From NCBI GenBank assembly GCA_045603485.1, contig JAZUMF010000117.1, forward strand, positions 24,575 to 88,574: a DNA stretch of 64,000 nt. Direction: 5' to 3'. This stretch comes from Kiritimatiellia bacterium. GTDB taxonomy: Bacteria > Verrucomicrobiota > Kiritimatiellia > RFP12 > JAAYLN01. The position numbers and the translations under genes are program-made. Of the stretch, positions 1,408 to 47,057 are shown in pieces (position 1 is the first letter of the stretch; the number at the start of each line of letters is the position of its first letter). The notes beneath the pieces were generated by a model that was not told the origin of the DNA, searched no databases, and saw nothing but the letters and a program-made list of their open reading frames with translations.

Positions 1408-3444
1408 ATGGAAACGAGTTCTTCCTTGAATTTGAATTTTGATCCGCTGATTCCTTTCAATAAGGATCTTGTCGGTGTTGAGAATGTCGCTAACGAGCTT
1501 AGGAGTATCAGGGAACGCACTGGCTTTAGGCGTTTTTTGATTACGGGACCGGGCTTTAATGCTGTTATGTACGGCCCTTTTGCTGATGATGTTTATTCAA
1601 AAATCGGCGATGATATCGCGAAGATACAGAGCGAGCTTAAGGATACCGATATCAAGTTGTCATGGTGGTGTGCGCCGACAATCAGGTATTTTTCCGATTT
1701 TAATTCTATTGAAGATGCCGCAGGTAATAAGTGTGTCGACAATAAGAAGTGTCCTCTGGATGAAAGCTTTATCAAGGATTGGACAGCTAAAATCCGCTCT
1801 GTCGCCGAGCGTTGTGATTTGGAGTTTATCGTCATTGAGGATGACTTTGTTATCAATTTTTCACGCGGGTTAAATGAGTCGGGAGGCTGTTATTGCCACA
1901 GGCATTTAGAGCTTTTCGCAAAGCTATATGGAGAGCATTTGACGGCAGAGCAGATTTGGGACGCATTTGTTAACCGCACACCGGAAAACCTTCCAATCAG
2001 GCGTGCCTTTTCAGATGCTCAACGCGAGTCATTGGTTGCACTGGCTAAGCGTGTACGCAGTGAGGTCAATAAGGTCAATTCTAAGATCCGCATTGTTCTC
2101 TGCGAGCCTGGCGGCGCAGATTTGGACGGCGACAGCGCCGAGGCTATTACCCGAGCCTTTGCAGGTGAGAATCGTCCTGCTATCCGCCAGCAGGGTGCAA
2201 TTTACAGTGCAGAGACCACCCCAGCTATGATTCCTTCGGCACTATGTCATGCTATGTGGGTGACAGAACGGTTGCCGCGCGATATTGAGACATTCTATGA
2301 GGCTGATACATATCCTCATAACAGATTTTTCTCGTCGGCAACGGCTATGACTTCTTTGATGAGCGGCGTCTTGATGGCGGGCTCGTCTGACTTTATGTTT
2401 TATTGCACACAGTACCTTGACGATCCTTTGGAGGACGATGGGTACGCTGCTCAATACAAGAGACTTTTGCCTAAATTTGAAAAGGCGCACCGCTTTATCA
2501 TGGAGAAGGAGGCAAGGCTTACAGGTATCCGTCAGGTATGGTCTTCTGATGCGGCTTGGTTAAATAGGCGTGCGAAGAATCTTGATGGCGACCATTGGCA
2601 GAGTCTGATCCATTGGCAGTCATATTTTTATTCCAAGATGGGTTTGCCGTATACGATGCGTGACTGTGATGCGGCGGTCAATTCGCTTATCGGCGGTATG
2701 CCTGATTATTTGAGTGATGAGGAAATCAGGAGGATGCTTTCCGGCGGTCTCTTTATCGATGCTCAAGCTGCAGAGATATTGGCTAAGCGTGGATTTTCAA
2801 AGGAAATCGGCGCTGATGTCGAGCGCGTCGAAAGGATTCCGGCTCTTGGTGAGAAGATTTTGCCGGCCGCAGAATGTCAGTCTCGCGGTAAGCGGATGAA
2901 TGCTTCGTTTATCTTCAATGCCGGCGCCGAGGGCTCTATTAGGCGTTATGCTGTCTTGAAGCCTCATGACGGCACTAAGGTGCTCAGTTCATACCTTGAC
3001 AATTATGATAATGAAATTGCTCCGTCATTTACATATTTCGAGAATGAACTTGGCGGTCGTGTGGCAATCATGCCTACTTCTCTTTGCAACAATAGGACTT
3101 CTTCTCTTTACAATTTGCGTAGGCAGGAGATGTTGCGAAATGTCTTTAACCGCCTTGCCGGTGAAAATGGCCTGCCTGTGAATGTTAAGAACGCGCCCGG
3201 AGTTTGGGTGCTTGCGGCATTGTCTAAGGCCGGTGATGAGATGCTTGTCATGGTCAATAATCTTAACTGTGATGTTCGGGCAGGAGTTAAGCTTGATATC
3301 GGCAAGAATTGGTCTTCGGCGAAGGCATATTTCCTGAATGACGATGGTAATGAGGTCCCATTGGATATCAAGGACGGTGTCATTACAATTGAAAAGCCTC
3401 TCGGGGTTATGATCCCAGAGTTTATCCATCTTTCTCTTCCCTGA
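1408..3444 (+). CDS. Putative glycoside hydrolase-like protein (TIM-barrel N-terminus, GH42 trimerisation-like C-terminus)
   Basis: 678-aa ORF with SD AGGAG; IEDDF and CYCHRH motifs; 'GGLFIDAQAA' and 'ENELGGRV' segments typical of beta-galactosidase middle domains. Family not certain. Confidence 0.55.
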   Translation: METSSSLNLNFDPLIPFNKDLVGVENVANELRSIRERTGFRRFLITGPGFNAVMYGPFADDVYSKIGDDIAKIQSELKDTDIKLSWWCAPTIRYFSDFNSIEDAAGNKCVDNKKCPLDESFIKDWTAKIRSVAERCDLEFIVIEDDFVINFSRGLNESGGCYCHRHLELFAKLYGEHLTAEQIWDAFVNRTPENLPIRRAFSDAQRESLVALAKRVRSEVNKVNSKIRIVLCEPGGADLDGDSAEAITRAFAGENRPAIRQQGAIYSAETTPAMIPSALCHAMWVTERLPRDIETFYEADTYPHNRFFSSATAMTSLMSGVLMAGSSDFMFYCTQYLDDPLEDDGYAAQYKRLLPKFEKAHRFIMEKEARLTGIRQVWSSDAAWLNRRAKNLDGDHWQSLIHWQSYFYSKMGLPYTMRDCDAAVNSLIGGMPDYLSDEEIRRMLSGGLFIDAQAAEILAKRGFSKEIGADVERVERIPALGEKILPAAECQSRGKRMNASFIFNAGAEGSIRRYAVLKPHDGTKVLSSYLDNYDNEIAPSFTYFENELGGRVAIMPTSLCNNRTSSLYNLRRQEMLRNVFNRLAGENGLPVNVKNAPGVWVLAALSKAGDEMLVMVNNLNCDVRAGVKLDIGKNWSSAKAYFLNDDGNEVPLDIKDGVITIEKPLGVMIPEFIHLSLP

Positions 3445-3461
3445 AGAGAGAAGGTTTTTTT
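3430..3461 (+). terminator. Probable intrinsic terminator overlapping the stop codon
   Basis: TCTCTTC-CCT-GAAGAGA stem followed closely by T7. Confidence 0.5.
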
Positions 3462-3663
3462 GACAATTGCTAATGTCAATCGAGTCGCCAAAAAACTGTC
3501 TAACTTACAAACTCGCAACACTGTAACACTTGCAAACTGACAATATACAATGCAAGTTACAAGTGTTGCAGTAGGGATGTTTCGAGTCCGGGAGTTATAG
3601 TTGCCAACCCAAAGTCTAACATCTATCGGTAATTGACAACATTGATATCGGTATCGGCATTTC

Positions 3664-4533
3664 TCAGTTGCGATAGCTGAAGGTGCAGGAGTCACCCTCG
3701 TTCTCGCGGAAGATTTCATCCCACTCGCGAGGCCGTTCCTCGCCTTCTTTAAGGGGAGACGGGAAGAAAAAGTCGCTTTGCTTTAGAGATACGACTGCGC
3801 GATCTTCGTAGGAGCGCATTATTGCAAAGCCGATTGTTCCCCACCATCCCGTTGACGGAACGCACACCTCGCGAGTGACATGGCGTTTAGAAAAACCGCT
3901 GTAGTACCAGTTCTTTATCCATTGATGCTTGTGTCCATAGACATATCCTACAAAATTAGGATTGTCTTCAAAGGTGGCTCGGATATCTTTGCCGTTTATG
4001 CGGAGCTCGCAGGGCGGATGGTGTGAGCCGATGATAAAGGGGCGCTTTGATTCGGCGGCAGCCTTGCAGAGCCATTCGGCCTGTGCTTCGTCAAGGATAC
4101 CCTCAACGGCATTCCAGCCGCCTTCATCGCCGATCTCCTTGAGGGAGTCCAAGAGGAAGAGGTCAAGTGTGCCGAGATCAACGGCAGCGGCGGCGCGTCC
4201 GGGAACTGGTGAGCGCTCAAGACTTTCAGGGTGGTACCTGAAGAAGGAATCGCGATGGTCATGATTGCCAAGCGTTAGTATCAGGTCAATGCCGGCATCG
4301 CGAATTCTGTTTAATTCATCCATTGATTCTTCGTAATCGGCTGAAAGTCCCTTCCAGAGTGAAATATCGCCAAAAATGACAACACGGGCGGGCAGGGGGT
4401 CCATCGCCAGTATTTGGTCTACAGCATTTACGAAGAGGGGATTTTGGTAGACAGGCTGTCCGGCGACCTCTTTGCCGCTTACATGGATGTCTGAAAGAAA
4501 AATCGAAAGATTCTTGTCAAATTTTTTTTGCAT
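3664..4533 (-). CDS. Calcineurin-like metallophosphoesterase
   Basis: Motifs SDIH, FGD, GNHD, SHHP, GHKH. ATG at 4533 preceded by GGAG. Confidence 0.88.
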   Translation of the reverse strand: MQKKFDKNLSIFLSDIHVSGKEVAGQPVYQNPLFVNAVDQILAMDPLPARVVIFGDISLWKGLSADYEESMDELNRIRDAGIDLILTLGNHDHRDSFFRYHPESLERSPVPGRAAAAVDLGTLDLFLLDSLKEIGDEGGWNAVEGILDEAQAEWLCKAAAESKRPFIIGSHHPPCELRINGKDIRATFEDNPNFVGYVYGHKHQWIKNWYYSGFSKRHVTREVCVPSTGWWGTIGFAIMRSYEDRAVVSLKQSDFFFPSPLKEGEERPREWDEIFRENEGDSCTFSYRN

Positions 4534-41300: not shown

Positions 41301-43251
41301 AGTTTGTCGTATTATAAACGGCCGGCAATAGAGTAACATCGAACGACACCTTGTCGTCGGTGGTTTTACCCTCACGAAGTCCCAAATACCAGTCACTCTC
41401 AAAATATGTAACCGTATCGCTGGCAGAAACTGTTCGTCCGCCAGGTTCTTGAACATCAGCTAAAGCCGTAAGAGCCACCGGATAAGACGTACCGGAAACC
41501 GAGTTCTCCTTTAAGCTGGAGTAAGTGTAGGAAAACTTGCCGTTTTCAAGTTCAGGCTCAACCTTTAGCATTTTCTGTTTGAAAGGCAGATTAGTGCCGA
41601 CTGTCCAACCTCGCCAATGGCGAGGTTTTTTAGCGCGGTTGACGATAAATGTAATTTTGCAGTCTCCGTTAGCCACAGGCTCGCCAAAGTAATAATCGGC
41701 ATTACCAATAAATTCAACCTTATTGTCAAAACCCACAACCTCATCAACTGATGACTTAAGTCCTACCGCAAATCGGTCAGGAACATAAGCTGCAATATAC
41801 ATCGGCATAGAGTGCAGTTGTGAAGAGCCAACCTTACAGTAAACCATCCATTCGCCGACAGCCGCATCAACCGGCACCTTCCAAGATGTCGATGCCAAGC
41901 CATGGTCGTCCGTCACAAGACGCCTAGATTCAATCAAGTTGTAATTGGCATCATAAAGTGAAAGTTCGACAGGGGCGCGAGTCATAGCCTTTGAACCGTC
42001 TTTTGCGGCAGTCCGCACCAAAACGGAAGATTCAAATGTTTCGCCCGGGCGACAAAGCTCGCGCTCTGAAAATACGAGAGCTGATGGTCCATTGTAAGAC
42101 TTAAAAGAGTTAGACGCTTCCTTCAGATTGGTACAATCAAAATCAATATAAGTAAAGTCGTCTTCAGTCCTGACTTCAACACCGACGATCTTTTCATTGC
42201 CGTCATATTTAAAACGGGGATCCGGCTTAATAATTGCAAGACCGCGGGAGTCGGTAGTGGCCGTGCCGGCAATCTGATGCGTCTTCGTATATGCAACAAC
42301 CTTCGCGCCGGAAACGGCTTTTGCATCGCTAAAACCCGTTACAAAAACCAATAAACGGGAATTAACGCCGGGCTCAGTGAAAACCTGCGGCGCTAAATCT
42401 GTAAGAGCAAAGGTAAACTCGTCTCTGGCATTAGTTTTTTTATCAAAGAGTTCAACTTTATAGAAGCCCTTGTTGAAATTAGTCATAAACTGAGATAAGT
42501 CAAGCATGCTGTGAAGCATCAGATCTTTTGGACCGGTGATTTTTGCATGTCCTTTTACAATAAGGGCACTCTTTTGAAAAATCATTGCCCAATTCGACCA
42601 AAAGACGCTGCTGAAACCATAGATGGGAAGATTTGAATCGTATGCTTTAAAAATCGAAACTTCATATTCTTCAACTCCAAGAGATGAAATCGGAAATTTA
42701 ATTCCATCTCGTGACGCAGGATAGAAAAGTCCGTTGTTTATCGCCCTCAAGATAGGTATAGCCTTTGCGGTTTTATAAGACCGCTCAATTTCCGATGAAA
42801 GTTTCAAGCCGCTATCTGTAGCCCAACCGCTGGCAAATGTGAAGGTATATGAGGTGTCAGCCTTAAAATCGCCATCAAGCCTGACACGGCCATTGCCGAA
42901 AACTTTCCATGAGAAATTCTTTACCTCAGGAGAAACCTTAATTGCCACACCATTTGTCGGAGGTAAAAGATTTTCCTCAACAGGACAAAAGTTGGCAACC
43001 AGATATGAGTCGTAATATGTATCAGACTTTTGTATTGGTGTTACGGTTAATGGCACAGAGACTTTAGCCTTTGCGGCATCAAGTATGGCTGCATTTGCAG
43101 TCTCTTGTGAAATAGCTTGAGCCTCTGACCGTGAAATCGTATTCTGCTCATAGCGTCTTTGCTTCAAAAACAAAGAAAGAGTTGAAATTCCAAAAAATAC
43201 CACCAACATGGAAAGTATTACAAGAACGGTTATAGTGCATTTCTTTGACAT
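38380..43251 (-). CDS. Bacterial alpha-2-macroglobulin
   Basis: 1623 aa; ER.LCRPGE, YVPDRF, AIDEG, PRF..GD, thioester YPYGCLEQ, DLVPGGFE, RAVTPG.Y, EDMYNP. Confidence 0.95.
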   Translation of the reverse strand: MSKKCTITVLVILSMLVVFFGISTLSLFLKQRRYEQNTISRSEAQAISQETANAAILDAAKAKVSVPLTVTPIQKSDTYYDSYLVANFCPVEENLLPPTNGVAIKVSPEVKNFSWKVFGNGRVRLDGDFKADTSYTFTFASGWATDSGLKLSSEIERSYKTAKAIPILRAINNGLFYPASRDGIKFPISSLGVEEYEVSIFKAYDSNLPIYGFSSVFWSNWAMIFQKSALIVKGHAKITGPKDLMLHSMLDLSQFMTNFNKGFYKVELFDKKTNARDEFTFALTDLAPQVFTEPGVNSRLLVFVTGFSDAKAVSGAKVVAYTKTHQIAGTATTDSRGLAIIKPDPRFKYDGNEKIVGVEVRTEDDFTYIDFDCTNLKEASNSFKSYNGPSALVFSERELCRPGETFESSVLVRTAAKDGSKAMTRAPVELSLYDANYNLIESRRLVTDDHGLASTSWKVPVDAAVGEWMVYCKVGSSQLHSMPMYIAAYVPDRFAVGLKSSVDEVVGFDNKVEFIGNADYYFGEPVANGDCKITFIVNRAKKPRHWRGWTVGTNLPFKQKMLKVEPELENGKFSYTYSSLKENSVSGTSYPVALTALADVQEPGGRTVSASDTVTYFESDWYLGLREGKTTDDKVSFDVTLLPAVYNTTNSTLPFNEISVSLARKEWKRHLVSNYSQSKIDVDWREELVKLDELSRTLKIAVESPCSYTGSIEYASNELPAGQYILTVKGDNNTVSTIEFWHWEGESSERTQNIADLILTPLAPSFKPGDKAEVSFYAPNSGSLLVVAGVNGINDYLTQEVVAGKNVISLQIPSDIIAGCYNIFVTLVSDGANGTMRRLVGTAKLKIDSTQSRLLNVALDFPEKVLPRETAKVKVTLKNRNGEPVSGVVKIGAIDEGVAAMSNFHVVNAYKHFYDRDFGLPFSFFDYFHLIYPELKLLPDGTFGGDLALMAPSKRRDSIVKQKETARFTLPPIYVSTNGVATVDVTFPEHLGALRLTAVAANDSAVGSTEETIILRNKISVVPSAPRFAVGGDRFKLTSTIFNHETDEGEWTLEVALPDGLSSDGKTILKRNGRLAKGASTIEDFEMAIANEAQGDKIISFKLTLGNSVVEEKVFITVRPQMATVTSVEYLALTNGVLDLASLADDWHSNTLSKVELSSMPLLAISESLEWLAEYPYGCLEQTTSAAFPFLVAGDLLKLGVIDETLDAQANLKVKEAFALIMQMQCGDGSFAMWPNGRSPWIYGSIFANHFIFEAERMGLLKIDNRFRNLQRSWLRDVAANAAPENRMDRAYAVYALAVNGDSSFIINALNVISQGDDDFAALVVSAAMMRFGYASEGIAIFEKAIASRAWETESDWDRIKNLGMALFMAAKAGYRDYAKLTPIIAILNNSLRDDGSAWGTTRDNSWSVLGLASFAQMLEIGNATGTVKVGTVEKEFNVSQKPFVVERKIDDLIQIRSKDMLFAKVETAGIPKKPIKRNNMISISKSYVDDDGNPISKVASGSLITVVVNIASPVDIDRTVLVDLVPGGFELEDVTLATRSSVIPNANLSNNSKLHGSSEIRDDRWLWFGYLPKADKDTPSTITYTLRAVTPGVYTIPQIIIEDMYNPDLRGDYIPGKTIVIE

Positions 43252-43293
43252 AGCAATTTTCCTAAAAATAAGTAAAGAACGAAAAAAAATAAT

Positions 43294-43314
43294 CTAGACT
43301 TCAAACAAGTCTAG
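43294..43314. promoter_or_regulatory. Palindrome upstream of the alpha-2-macroglobulin operon (possible operator)
   Basis: CTAGACTT-CAAAC-AAGTCTAG, perfect 8-bp arms, 42 nt from the start codon. Confidence 0.4.
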
Positions 43315-43394
43315 TTTATATAAAAACTTTACCATTATTATAGATATTATAATGATTTTTTTTGATGTTTTCAATAGAAAAAAATCGGCGCAGA

Positions 43395-43489
43395 GGCTGC
43401 GCCTGGCGAAACCCTATTGGGACTGCGCCTGGCGAAACCTGGGCTGCGGTTGGCGAAACCCTGTTGGATAGGCTGCGCCTGGCGGGACC
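43395..43489. repeat. Four 19-bp REP-like direct repeats (GGCTGCGCCTGGCGAAACC consensus)
   Basis: Copies at 43395, 43421, 43442 and 43471; internal CGCC-T-GGCG palindrome; the array ends 6 nt from the HUH gene stop. Confidence 0.9.
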
Positions 43490-43495
43490 AGCTTT

Positions 43496-44491
43496 CTAAC
43501 GATGATGAAGAAGAGCTTGAGTAGTTGGTTTAGAGCCGAGGTAGCTGATCGCTTCGGAATCAATGCCGCAAATTTCAGCTCCAAGCGCATTTATCGCGAA
43601 GCAGCGTTCGCGCGTAAGGGGCTCTTTCTTCGTAATCGGCGCAAAGGGCGAGAGCATCAGGAGCTTCCCGTCGGCGCAGGCTGTGAAGTAATCACCTTGC
43701 GGTTTGAAATAGGGCCCGAAGCCGCGCGGAATTATCGCAATAAGAGGCAGCGACGCTTCGCGCACGGCCTTGGCGACGGCTTGCTCGCCCGGCGAGATGC
43801 ATCCGGATACCGCAACTCCACCGCGCTCTCCGTGAAGAAGAGCTTTTTCAACAATTGCCGCGATTTCGCTCTCGCTCGCTCTTCTCGAAACCTGGATAAG
43901 CATTTTATCGGTCGCGTCCAAGAGAAAGTGATTTCCTACGGCATCACACCTTTTATCATTCGGGAGCGCGATCGAGCGCGTTACTTTGAAAAGTTCGGGA
44001 TTTTGCATGACAGCCCAGCGTCTTTCGACATTTTGATGAATGTAGGCTGCCTTTCTTTTAAGCTGACCTTTCGAAAAGAGAATCGTGTCGTAAAGGCCGG
44101 GGAACCAGAAGGTCGGCGAACCATCAAAGAGTATCGGAGTTTCAAGTGCGGCATTGGCCTTGGTGCATGCGATTTTGAAGCTGCGGATGATTTCTCCGAG
44201 AGGCGAATCAAGGCGCTTGTGAATCCTGATAATCCCATGGAAATGTTCGGGCATTACCGCATATTCGCAAGGCTCAACTTCGGGGAAGACGGAGCTGAGA
44301 TTTCGCCAAGCTTCGGTAACTTTTTCACCGAGCGGAGAGAGGGTCATTTTACTGTCAATGATTTTGCCGAGAATGGGGCGGCGTTCTTTAACCGTAAGCG
44401 TAATCATATAAATCCATGGCTGGCAATAATCCCAACCCGGGAGGCGAATTCCAGATTTAAGATGACCATTTTTATCGCGGCGGCTTTTCAT
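43496..44491 (-). mobile_element. HUH/Y1 tyrosine transposase (RAYT/IS200-like) fused to a DprA/SLOG-like C-terminal domain
   Basis: IRLPGWDY..PWIYMIT, VMPEHFHGII (HUH), FW..GLYD, YI.QN (catalytic Tyr); then AVGN..LL, VSRR, VSGCISPGE, GKLLMLSP. Confidence 0.85.
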
Positions 44492-44594
44492 GGCGATTAT
44501 TATAGCAAAAAAAAGTTGTTGTAGGTGAAATGAGTTTTTTATAAAATTATCTCAGTAAAAAGTTAAATTAACTGATTGGTAGATAAAGGAGGTC

Positions 44595-45434
44595 ATGATG
44601 AATAAGGGTATTGTCACATCGCTTGTTTTGGCAGCATCGATTTGTTCTGCTGTTGGGGATATTCAGCTCCCTTCACCGAGGAAGCGCGGCGGAAAGGATA
44701 TGATGGAGGTCTTTGCCGAGCGCAAATCTGCCCGTGATTTCTCGGAACAGGAGCTTTCTCTTAAGACGCTTTCTGATTTGCTTTGGGCTGCTAATGGAAT
44801 AAACCGCCCTGACGGTCACCGTACTGCACCAACGGGGATGAATGTTCAGGATATCGATGTCTATGTAATGCTGCCGTCAGGCGTTTACATTTATGATGCC
44901 AAGTCCAATCTTTTGAAGCTTGTCAATTCAGGCGACCATAGGGCTGTCGCCGGCAAGCAGGATTTTGCCCAAAAGGCCCCTCTCAATCTTTTCTATGTGC
45001 AGGATCGTTCCCGTACCAAGAAGGCTGATGAGGCGGGAGCGCAATTGTATGCGGGTGTCCATTCGGGTGCGATTATGCAAAATGTTTACCTCTATTGCGC
45101 AAATGCAGGCTTGATATCGGTTGCAAGGGCATTTTTGGACTATGAGGCTTGCTCGAAGGCCTTGAAGCTTGGGGCAAATCAGCGTTTGGTTTTGGGGCAA
45201 TCTGTAGGCTATCCGTCATCTGACGGCTATATCGGCAAGAAGGCTGCGCTGGATGCCGCCTTTAAGCATGCCGGCGTTGCCGAGGCTGATGCCCGTAGGG
45301 TTTCTTGCAAGCTTGACCGTGATGACGGTGTTATGGTCTACGAGATTGAGTTTAAGAACAACGGCTTTGAGTATGACTATGAGATTGACGCAAAATCAGG
45401 AAAGATTTTAGAGTCATCAAAGGAGCGTGACTGA
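44595..45434 (+). CDS. Exported nitroreductase-family (SagB/ThcOx-like) protein with C-terminal PepSY domain
   Basis: Signal peptide; RKSAR.F, LSDLLWAANGINR, RTAP, QNVYL, QSVGYP; then I...AL..A...LD.DDG..VYEIEF...YDYEIDAKSGKIL. Confidence 0.87.
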   Translation: MMNKGIVTSLVLAASICSAVGDIQLPSPRKRGGKDMMEVFAERKSARDFSEQELSLKTLSDLLWAANGINRPDGHRTAPTGMNVQDIDVYVMLPSGVYIYDAKSNLLKLVNSGDHRAVAGKQDFAQKAPLNLFYVQDRSRTKKADEAGAQLYAGVHSGAIMQNVYLYCANAGLISVARAFLDYEACSKALKLGANQRLVLGQSVGYPSSDGYIGKKAALDAAFKHAGVAEADARRVSCKLDRDDGVMVYEIEFKNNGFEYDYEIDAKSGKILESSKERD

Positions 45435-45689: not shown

Positions 45690-47057
45690 ATGAAAAATTT
45701 GTTAGTCACTAAAAGTGTTTTATTTTGTATTGCCATAATTGTTGGGGGAATTGCATTTCTTCTCTATTCATTAAGTAATAATAGCGGGGATGATATAACA
45801 AAAAGGCCTACTCTTAAAGCGGAACAGGGCGATGCGGTGGCTCAGTTTAATCTTGGCTTGAAGTATGCCAATGGCCACGGCGTAGCGCAAGACTACGTCA
45901 AGGCTGTTTATTGGTATACAAAGTCAGCCGAGCAGGGTCATACTGATGCGCAGTATAATCTTGGCTCGATGTATGAAAATGGCCGAGGCGTAGCACAAGA
46001 CTACACCAAGGCAGTCTATTGGTACACGAAGTCAGCTGAGCAAGGGAATGCACAGGCGCAGTGTGTTCTTGGCTTGATATATGGCATAGAGCAAGACTAC
46101 ACGAAGGCAGTCTATTGGTACACAAAGTCAGCCGAGCAGGGTGATGTTGGCGCACAGTATAATCTTGGAGCAATGTATGCCATCGGCCAAGGTGTAGCAC
46201 AAGACTACACCAAGGCAGTTTATTGGTTCACAAAGTCAGCCGAGCAGGGTAATGCTGATGCGCAGTATAATCTTGGAGCAATGTATGCCAACGGCGAAGG
46301 CGTATCGCAAGACTACACCAAGGCAGTTTATTGGTACACAAAGTCAGCGAAACAGGGTAATGCTTGGGCTCAGTTTAATCTTGGATTGATGTATGACAAT
46401 GGTCGAGGCGTAGCGCAAGATTACGCTAAGGCAGTCTATTGGTTTACGAAGGCAGCGGAGCAGGGTAATGCTTGGGCTCAGTGTAATCTTGGCTCGATGT
46501 ATGCCAACGACGAAGGCGTATCGCAAGACTACACGAAGGCTGTTTATTGGTTCACAAAGGCAGCCGAGAAGGGTGATGTCAGTGCGCAGTATAATCTTGG
46601 CGTGATGTATGAAAATGGCAAAGGCGTAGCACAAGACTACACGAAGTCAGTTTATTGGTACACGAAGTCAGCCGAGCAAGGGATTGCACAGGCGCAGTAT
46701 AATCTTGGCGTGATGTATGAAAATGGCAAAGGTGTAGCACAAGACTACACGAAGGCAGTCTATTGGTACACAAAGTCAGCCGAGCAAGGGAATGCACAGG
46801 CGCAGTATAATCTTGGCGTGATGTATGAAAATGGCAAAGGCGTAGCACAAGACTACACGAAGGCAGTCTATTGGTACACAAAGTCAGCCGAGCAAGGGAT
46901 TGCACAGGCGCAGTATAATCTTGGCGTGATGTATGAAAAAGGTCGAGGCGTAGCGCAAGATTACATTAAGGCAGTCTATTGGTACACGAAGTCCGCGGAG
47001 CAGGGTAATGCTGATGCACAAAAAAGACTTAACAGTCTAAAATCCTTGGCTAAATAA
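45690..47057 (+). CDS. Membrane-anchored Sel1-like repeat protein (11 repeats)
   Basis: N-terminal TM; AEQG...AQYNLG.MY..G.GVAQDY.KAVYWYTKS units of 36 aa (108 bp). Confidence 0.95.
   Translation: MKNLLVTKSVLFCIAIIVGGIAFLLYSLSNNSGDDITKRPTLKAEQGDAVAQFNLGLKYANGHGVAQDYVKAVYWYTKSAEQGHTDAQYNLGSMYENGRGVAQDYTKAVYWYTKSAEQGNAQAQCVLGLIYGIEQDYTKAVYWYTKSAEQGDVGAQYNLGAMYAIGQGVAQDYTKAVYWFTKSAEQGNADAQYNLGAMYANGEGVSQDYTKAVYWYTKSAKQGNAWAQFNLGLMYDNGRGVAQDYAKAVYWFTKAAEQGNAWAQCNLGSMYANDEGVSQDYTKAVYWFTKAAEKGDVSAQYNLGVMYENGKGVAQDYTKSVYWYTKSAEQGIAQAQYNLGVMYENGKGVAQDYTKAVYWYTKSAEQGNAQAQYNLGVMYENGKGVAQDYTKAVYWYTKSAEQGIAQAQYNLGVMYEKGRGVAQDYIKAVYWYTKSAEQGNADAQKRLNSLKSLAK

Follow-up and report, generated by a model that had tools for sequence, protein, structure and literature searches.

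The question raised by this locus is what kind of system, if any, is formed by a gene for a two-domain protein and the short repeats that begin directly behind it. The gene lies on the minus strand of a 64,000-nucleotide stretch of DNA from a Kiritimatiellia bacterium (GenBank assembly GCA_045603485.1, contig JAZUMF010000117.1, positions 24,575 to 88,574 of the forward strand), here called the window, and its product combines a Y1 HUH nuclease with a DprA-like Rossmann domain. The answer that we favour, with moderate confidence, is that gene and repeats make up a unit similar to the REPtrons, which pair a REP-associated tyrosine transposase (RAYT) with repetitive extragenic palindromes (REPs), and that the unit is of an undescribed sub-kind: a RAYT-type Y1 HUH domain fused to a DprA/ShosA-type Rossmann domain, with a cognate foot-hairpin element beside the gene. 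The gene is real and probably functional, and the cognate element is real as well.

The gene and the two domains of its product are placed as follows.

43496..44491, minus strand: open reading frame (ORF) of the Y1 HUH nuclease and DprA-like Rossmann domain fusion, 331 amino acids.
43997..44491, minus strand: RAYT/IS200-like Y1 HUH domain, N-terminal, residues about 1-165 (H83, H85, Y150, N154), from NF047646 and fold matches.
43523..43993, minus strand: DprA/ShosA-like Rossmann (SLOG-superfamily) domain, C-terminal, residues about 167-323, from structure and profile matches.

An earlier interpretation based on the letters alone (the sequence-only reading) had proposed a HUH/Y1-DprA(SLOG) fusion from short motifs, and translation together with alignment located all of these at the residues it gave: R16-L-P-G-W-D-Y22, M80-P-E-H-F-H85 and Y150-I-H-Q-N154 in the N-terminal half, and G186-N..LL, S202-R203, V228-S-G and L277-L-M-L-S-P282 in the C-terminal half. 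An AlphaFold2 model was built on an alignment of 37 sequences, chosen from 120 listed homologs and spanning 37-87% identity, and reached a mean predicted local distance difference test score of 89.6. In structure comparison, residues 11-165 of the model matched the E. coli REP-associated transposase 4er8 (Z 12.8, 132 residues aligned, root-mean-square deviation (rmsd) 4.5) and IS608 TnpA 2vhg (Z 11.9, 107 aligned, rmsd 2.8), and the fold of this domain also resembled that of ISDra2 TnpA. Residues 167-323 matched ShosA 8zva best (Z 15.1, 140 residues aligned, rmsd 2.8), together with DprA of H. pylori (4ljk, Z 12.6), DprA of S. pneumoniae (3uqz, Z 11.7) and 3maj (Z 10.7). The DprA/ShosA matches were well separated from unrelated rows (Z 8 and below), and Foldseek was concordant. 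Going by the model, the two-domain RAYT-type and DprA-like architecture is right at the level of the fold, including the DprA likeness of the C-terminal half that had been proposed.

Judged by curated sequence thresholds, the fusion protein falls in neither the RAYT nor the DprA family. A Pfam scan of the query gave 0 matches at E <= 1, Y1_Tnp and PF02481 included, and the NCBIfam model NF047646 (REP_Tyr_transpos) matched residues 27-155 with an E-value of 6e-10 and 39.1 bits against a cut-off of 80. Across the alignment, REP_Tyr_transpos was matched by 37/37 members at E <= 0.01 (best 2e-15), the IS200 model by 1/37 and Pfam Y1_Tnp by 4/37 at E <= 0.01. H83, H85, Y150 and N154 are invariant in all 37 sequences, H83-F-H85 being the HUH metal-binding motif, and the residue after N154 is V or A in the query and its close clade and P in distant members. 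The Y1 domain is a RAYT-type HUH single-strand-DNA endonuclease/ligase that is probably active. In the C-terminal half the same sequences share G186, N187, Q200, S202, R203, S229, C231-S233, G235 and E236 and, further on, K263, P264, R294 and N301. A profile was built from 39 C-terminal domains chosen from 94; one of the 39 matched Pfam PF02481 (DprA), at an E-value of 0.03. Compared with the PDB sequences, this profile had H. pylori DprA on top at an E-value of only 0.006 and placed the G-N..LL...SR of the query on G-D..LL...TR of that protein, and a whole-protein profile was uninformative in the same comparison (E >= 0.08). A database search with the query returned 501 proteins at E <= 0.001 among 3,828 candidates. 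Since most homologs among the matches listed align over most of their length, the fusion is conserved. The ESM Atlas clusters of the query are labelled just 'hypothetical' or 'transposase family', and our literature searches on RAYT/HUH-DprA/SLOG fusions found no description of the fusion family.

The repeats next to the gene resolve into one complete element and three partial ones.

43404..43413, minus strand: 5' foot of the element, GGTTTCGCCA; family pattern GGTYYYGCC[AG].
43387..43403, minus strand: complete hairpin, on the gene strand GGCGCAG-CCT-CTGCGCC, 7 bp with a 3-nt loop, from folding and pattern search.
43378..43384, minus strand: T7 tail 3' of the hairpin, intrinsic-terminator-like.
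43421..43489, minus strand: three truncated units with foot, left arm and loop-like triplet, the right arm missing.

The sequence-only reading had described four 19-nt repeats with spacers of 7, 2 and 10 nt, starting 6 nt past the stop codon, and the coordinates agree: the units lie at 43395-43413, 43421-43439, 43442-43460 and 43471-43489 (0, 1, 2 and 2 mismatches), with these spacers, and 6 nt separate the stop codon from the nearest one. Four unit matches were reached in 0 of 100 dinucleotide shuffles of the window (mean 0.03). Each repeat is a copy of the foot with one arm attached; a complete hairpin is present in the distal copy only. There the gene strand runs foot GGTTTCGCCA, GGCGCAG, CCT, CTGCGCC, GA and seven T; on the top strand the hairpin, which overlaps the first 19-nt unit and had been missed by the sequence-only reading, reads GGCGCAG-AGG-CTGCGCC. 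It had a z of -2.98 when folded as single-stranded DNA and also scored as terminator-like, and together with the T7 tail it looks like the gene's own terminator. The CGCC-T-GGCG palindrome that had been described in the repeat is unable to fold, as that would leave a loop of 1 nt. The tie between repeat and gene stands, while the 19-nt unit centred on that palindrome gives way to a foot-plus-hairpin element of which three of the four units are truncated.

The same type of foot-hairpin element accompanies the gene in relatives at 58-87% protein identity. Perfect xGCGCxx hairpins with a 7-bp stem and a 3-nt loop were counted within the gene +-200 nt in relatives of at least 58% identity, and at least one was found at 25 of the 26 loci. 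Altogether 54 lay in the 37,962 nt of gene +-200 nt (1.42/kb), compared with 1 in the 69,350 nt making up the rest of these loci (0.01/kb); distant loci had 1 in 592,470 nt, and the only one in the 64-kb window was that of the array. The position of the element varies. It stands upstream of the ATG in loci L087-L089 and L002. In L087-L089 it is also found within the ORF's 3' end or behind it, and in L001 and L090-L106 it sits in frame in the inter-domain linker, where units of 27 or 30 nt encode peptide repeats and the ORF is intact. Hairpin indels occur at the 3' end of the ORF, and the homology among relatives ends at the outermost hairpins. Homologs lacking flanking repeats had been named as a finding that would refute the proposal; most of them do carry repeats in or beside the gene.

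Foot and hairpin also go together. The foot was surveyed in 58 hairpins, namely the clade set plus those of the window, of locus L141 from the same genus and of a second site in this genome. It was present on one side only in 54; in 32 of these the orientation was sense and the loops were rich in pyrimidines, and the other 22 were inverted, with complementary loops. When the loose foot pattern alone was searched, a perfect hairpin came next at 31 of 215 sites, whereas with the reversed pattern as a control even 6 of 7 pairs were reached at 0 of 185 sites. The stem variants are changed on both sides (CAG/CTG, CAC/GTG, CTC/GAG and CGC/GCG). A coding site within the fusion gene (44290-44311, residues ~60-66) resembles repeat arm plus foot and is 77% complementary to 43427-43448; a strict regular expression for a 3' foot was discarded, as its matches were mostly the counterpart of this site, conserved at +172 of the gene in relatives. 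Tandem arrays beside hairpin feet are also seen in L089 (19 nt x4 and 9 nt x4). In L002, from a goat-rumen Kiritimatiellae metagenome-assembled genome, the homolog (3001-3970) is interrupted by several frame changes or stops and is bounded on both sides by ~90-nt direct repeats composed of hairpin elements.

The locus varies between strains. Logan assembled contigs from four runs (X1, X5, X8 and X9) of four studies were placed on 42900-45000 of the window; in all four the locus is covered, and the genes that flank it are the same. The strains are otherwise 95-99% identical, and their contigs show 1, 3 or 4 units. In X5 a contig joins 43393 to 43470, skipping 76 nt or exactly three units, with 15 letters common at the joint; X1 lacks 26 nt, i.e. 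one unit; the X8 contigs break in the array, where a 38-nt contig has a depth of 79 versus 24; and X9 shows several small gaps in the alignment of the locus. The second difference lies before the gene, at two features of the window.

44499..44507, minus strand: extended -10 TGCTATAAT, ending 7 nt before the ATG, with no Shine-Dalgarno sequence; probable leaderless start.
44507..44514, minus strand: T8 run on the gene strand, upstream of the -10; empty form in the window.

All four runs carry extra DNA of about 83-112 nt at 44509-44511, within the T8 run just upstream of the -10, which in X1, X5 and X8 consists of a stem-loop-like string, a copy of 43444-43483 and 58 further letters. At this site the window is empty, and the four runs are filled. 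The filled order of element, T-run, TGCTATAAT and ATG is the arrangement of L087-L089, in which a hairpin and T-run directly precede the gene's own -10. The columns of TGCTATAAT are conserved in the alignment with the close relatives L087-L089 and L002, which together with its distance of 7 nt from the ATG fits the leaderless-type promoter proposed before; a consensus promoter scan did not call it, the -35 being missing. As both the array and the upstream insert differ between strains that are 95-99% identical, the system looks recently active.

Hairpins are also concentrated at the more distant members of the family. The distant set comprised 96 full-length loci (107 non-clade loci minus 11 partial matches), in which GC-rich, perfect hairpins with a stem of at least 7 and a loop of 3-6 were counted; these counts took the place of 12-mer and 10-mer measures of repeat coverage, the former of which had given weak enrichment in the flanks (15/76 downstream and 11/77 upstream). 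Within the gene their density was 1.03/kb, and the 200-nt stretches upstream and downstream of it had 1.38/kb and 1.64/kb, respectively; the remainder of the loci had 0.27/kb, and a 0.99-Mb sample of this genome had 0.15/kb. At 72 of the 96 loci there was at least one such hairpin. The sequences are lineage-specific and the places recurrent: upstream, at the 3' end, and at about +300-440 nt, which falls between the HUH motif and the Tyr motif. This agrees with subclass 2.4 of TnpA_Y1, in which, in the portions of Quentin et al. 2018 (PMC6006769) used here, REPs are inserted in the gene between HuH and Y. Searched genome-wide, one cognate pattern had 2-3 sites in each of five genomes (controls 0-1), and another had 10, 1, 16, 2 and 0 sites in five genomes (controls 0), the 10 and 16 sites being spread over 9 and 11 contigs. 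These dispersed sites in two genomes indicate that the elements can disperse, though modestly.

In the present genome (assembly of 3.05 Mb, 96% complete, in which repeats may be under-assembled) the element is rare. At up to 2 mismatches the 19-mer was found at the fusion locus alone, and at up to 4 mismatches a genome-wide search gave nothing convincing besides this locus and C5:41654. The full hairpin pattern has 2 sites, versus 0.11 expected. The second, at C5:41645 (C5:41645-41873; L140 4646-4873), is a solitary, intergenic foot-hairpin with a compensated stem that adjoins a 9-nt tandem array of 22.7 copies. Since the repeat is not dispersed, it does not drive the other repeats of the window, and the idea that the unit is a driver of the repeat mosaics there is unsupported: unit and hairpin occur nowhere else in the 64 kb. 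The proposal of a REP-mobilising system is retained as plausible at very low copy number only, with one other site in the assembly. A Sel1 protein with 11 repeats (45690-47057, plus strand) shares nothing with the 19-nt unit, and its internal coding repeats may be part of what had been called repeat mosaics.

Four paralogs of the fusion are present in this genome, all 22-38% identical to the query over the matched stretches. Two are full-length (C126:14022-14882 and C22:15617-16549; 29-38% identity), and one of these adjoins ORFs read as glycosyltransferase-like. The other two, C5:18418-18927 and C77:83356-83802, look broken or truncated; one has its HUH part upstream in another frame and one ends after the first Rossmann strand.

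Several of these results weigh against the REPtron-like reading, and some of them favour passive hairpins, i.e. terminators or insulators with slippage-prone repeats in a moving gene cassette, the substrate of the protein lying elsewhere, for instance in single-strand DNA repair or recombination by a domesticated RAYT. The hairpin with its T7 tail scores as an intrinsic terminator, adjoins the promoter-like site of the next gene and could end transcription whatever the protein does, and the hairpin and T-run before the -10 of L087-L089 are of the same kind. The two sites in this genome show little sign of dissemination, and a scan of the four paralog loci found no cognate hairpins (none at C126, unrelated single ones at C5, C22 and C77). 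Class-2 TnpA_Y1 genes are low-copy and divergent within genomes, as stated in the part of PMC6006769 consulted. Replication slippage can alter the copy number of a tandem array with no nuclease involved. The strain data are contigs and not reads, which leaves rare variants and exact repeat copy numbers uncertain, and the X9 insert is one of 83 letters, hairpin content being read in X1, X5 and X8 only. Among the distant loci, 24 of 96 lack a hairpin in the gene +-200 nt, the crude 10-mer repeat measure in the flanks showed an enrichment of just 1.5-2-fold (11.7% and 8.6% versus 5.8%), and the 26 clade loci include near-identical metagenome contigs and hence are not independent. As to the protein, the query scores under the curated cut-offs of NF047646 and Pfam Y1_Tnp, and its clade has Y-x3-N-[VA] where class 2 has Y-x3-N-P. 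Against passive hairpins, the same hairpin type is kept in frame in the linker of the ORF, where termination is impossible, the conserved 10-nt foot goes with the hairpin in both orientations, the hairpins are particular to each lineage and recur at typical positions, and 10-16 dispersed copies exist in some genomes. We consider the passive explanation unlikely.

The family is widespread. Of 31 genomes from the same order, counting the present one, 24 have it at E <= 1e-10, with several divergent copies and up to about ten matched stretches per genome, and at least 566 loci were counted in the scanned species genomes. A close ortholog (71% identity) was found in only one of the three genomes from the same genus. 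The nearest relatives are gut and rumen Kiritimatiellae and Verrucomicrobia, and distant members mostly belong to Prevotellaceae.

An autonomous IS200-like transposon, in which the hairpins would be subterminal ends and the fusion the transposase, the window copy having lost its upstream end and become immobilised, would account for part of this picture. Hairpin elements stand on both sides of the gene in other strains and in relatives, the homology between relatives stops at the outermost hairpins, and the Y1 fold matches IS608 and ISDra2 TnpA. In the synteny search, moreover, the neighbours of the query were shared by none of the relatives' loci, the same-genus genome included; a route to an empty site by way of the neighbouring nitroreductase was given up, as its same-genus homologs are only 43% identical. 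However, no second identical or near-identical copy was found in this genome, the paralogs being at most 38% identical, and the cassette occupies the same locus in strains from four studies. Hairpins inside the ORF and in inverted pairs are unlike IS ends, and the N-terminal domain scores as RAYT (37/37) as opposed to IS200 (1/37). We regard a transposon of this type as improbable. Unlike IS200/IS605 elements in general, the locus also has an extra DprA-like domain and no TnpB, and the absence of TnpB and terminal inverted repeats claimed by the sequence-only reading holds here.

The neighbouring genes are of a housekeeping kind: an alpha-2-macroglobulin with a penicillin-binding protein (PBP), a nitroreductase-PepSY protein, the Sel1-repeat protein, a TRAP transporter and BamA. 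By Pfam they include no TnpB, integrase or defence gene. This bears on the possibility of a conflict or defence protein, whose SLOG-type domain would sense a nucleotide or phage single-stranded DNA and switch on the HUH nuclease. ShosA of the ShosTA defence system is indeed the structure that the C-terminal half matches best. Unlike ShosTA, the fusion has no adjacent ShosT phosphoribosyltransferase toxin among its neighbours (Pfam), there was no PADLOC or PHROGs match, and the surroundings are those just named. A defence role would also leave the tight link to a specific hairpin unexplained, and we hold it to be very improbable.

Compared with known systems, the locus is closest to the REPtrons, represented by E. 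coli YafM (PDB 4ER8). It shares with them the Y1 HUH fold and motifs, one divergent gene with adjoining cognate hairpins, a short conserved foot 5' of the palindrome, elements in both orientations and a similar scale of the element; in the text available of Corneloup et al. 2021 (PMC8266576), group-3 REPs have a perfect 8-bp stem and a 3-nt loop. In REPtrons cognate footed hairpins flank the gene, as they do in other strains and relatives here, whereas in the window they are on the 3' side only. It differs from REPtrons in its ~160-amino-acid DprA-like Rossmann domain at the C-terminus, a foot GCCA instead of GTAG, arrays of truncated units and a very low copy number here, with 2 sites in 3.05 Mb and not many dispersed REPs. 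From class-2 RAYTs it differs in having N-[VA] for N-P in the query clade and a score under the NF047646 cut-off; the signature of class-2 TnpA_Y1 is a single Tyr in Y-x3-N-P, and the C-terminal domains are described as HTH (helix-turn-helix)/DnaA_C-like and subclass-specific in the sections of PMC6006769 consulted, the article text of which, supplements aside, has 0 occurrences of 'DprA'. With DprA/Smf and ShosA (4LJK, 3UQZ and 8ZVA) the C-terminal half shares the Rossmann-like fold and the order of motifs, i.e. G-x-x-x-LL, [ST]-R at a strand end, a VSG...G-[DE] loop and a late R..N helix. In contrast to DprA/Smf, the fusion has no SAM domain or other DprA accessory domain, its partner domain is a nuclease and the query lacks a PF02481 match; binding of single-stranded DNA and RecA loading are predicted from the fold.

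The composition and surroundings of the gene add some further points. GC is about 0.46-0.62 within the fusion gene versus 0.28-0.35 in both intergenic flanks, as had been described; such values are ordinary for intergenic DNA and do not by themselves mark an island. An antisense open frame of 340 amino acids (43502-44524, plus strand) covers the entire fusion gene; nothing was found to suggest that it is a gene, and it resembles a shadow ORF cast by the GC-rich coding strand. An Rfam scan gave chance-level matches only. Beyond the array lies one more feature.

43346..43374, minus strand: promoter-like site TTGAAA-17-TATAAT (11/12) of the downstream alpha-2-macroglobulin gene, adjoining the T-run of the element.

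Between this site and the ATG of the alpha-2-macroglobulin gene (43251) there is a perfect 8-bp palindrome with a 5-nt loop (43294-43314) and T/A-rich tails on both strands, which could be an attenuator or a bidirectional terminator.

How the REPtron-like unit might work can be outlined from known RAYTs, which bind folded REPs in single-stranded DNA, using the foot tetranucleotide together with the palindrome, cut at a dinucleotide 5' or 3' of the REP and can transfer strands (as given in the part of PMC8266576 used here). When the region becomes single-stranded at replication or transcription, the hairpin would extrude; the HUH domain would recognise foot plus hairpin and cut nearby, forming a link between Tyr150 and the 5'-phosphate, and the ends would be rejoined. 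ShosA binds single-stranded DNA in vitro and DprA binds it as well (PMC11961720, in the portion consulted), and the DprA-like domain may hold the flanking single strand and perhaps pass it to RecA. Repeated cutting and rejoining, or repair, at the foot would duplicate, delete and occasionally relocate units. We infer that the enzyme, and not slippage, makes the rearrangements; cutting and rejoining at the foot would explain the tandem foot-plus-arm copies, the changes of copy number between strains and the varied hairpin positions in relatives.

A bolder version, which we put forward as doubtful, is that of a 'hairpin writer': the Y1 domain would nick at its foot-hairpin in single-stranded DNA, the DprA-like domain would capture the strand and load RecA or promote annealing, and hairpin units would be copied, deleted and re-planted in the enzyme's own surroundings. 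Terminators, promoter insulators and even repeats in frame within the linker of its own protein would be products of such a system, which would turn hairpin sites into programmable recombination points. If true, it would give RAYT biology a recombination arm that is absent from the literature searched.

The spread of REP-type hairpins and the cellular role of RAYTs are still unsettled, and the fusion family is abundant among the Bacteroidota and the bacteria of the Planctomycetes-Verrucomicrobia-Chlamydiae group that live in gut and rumen. Its DprA-type domain points to a concrete link, open to testing, between the nicking of hairpins and the capture of single strands or recombination, and the strain polymorphism together with a defined hairpin, and thus defined substrates, makes the RAYT question directly testable.

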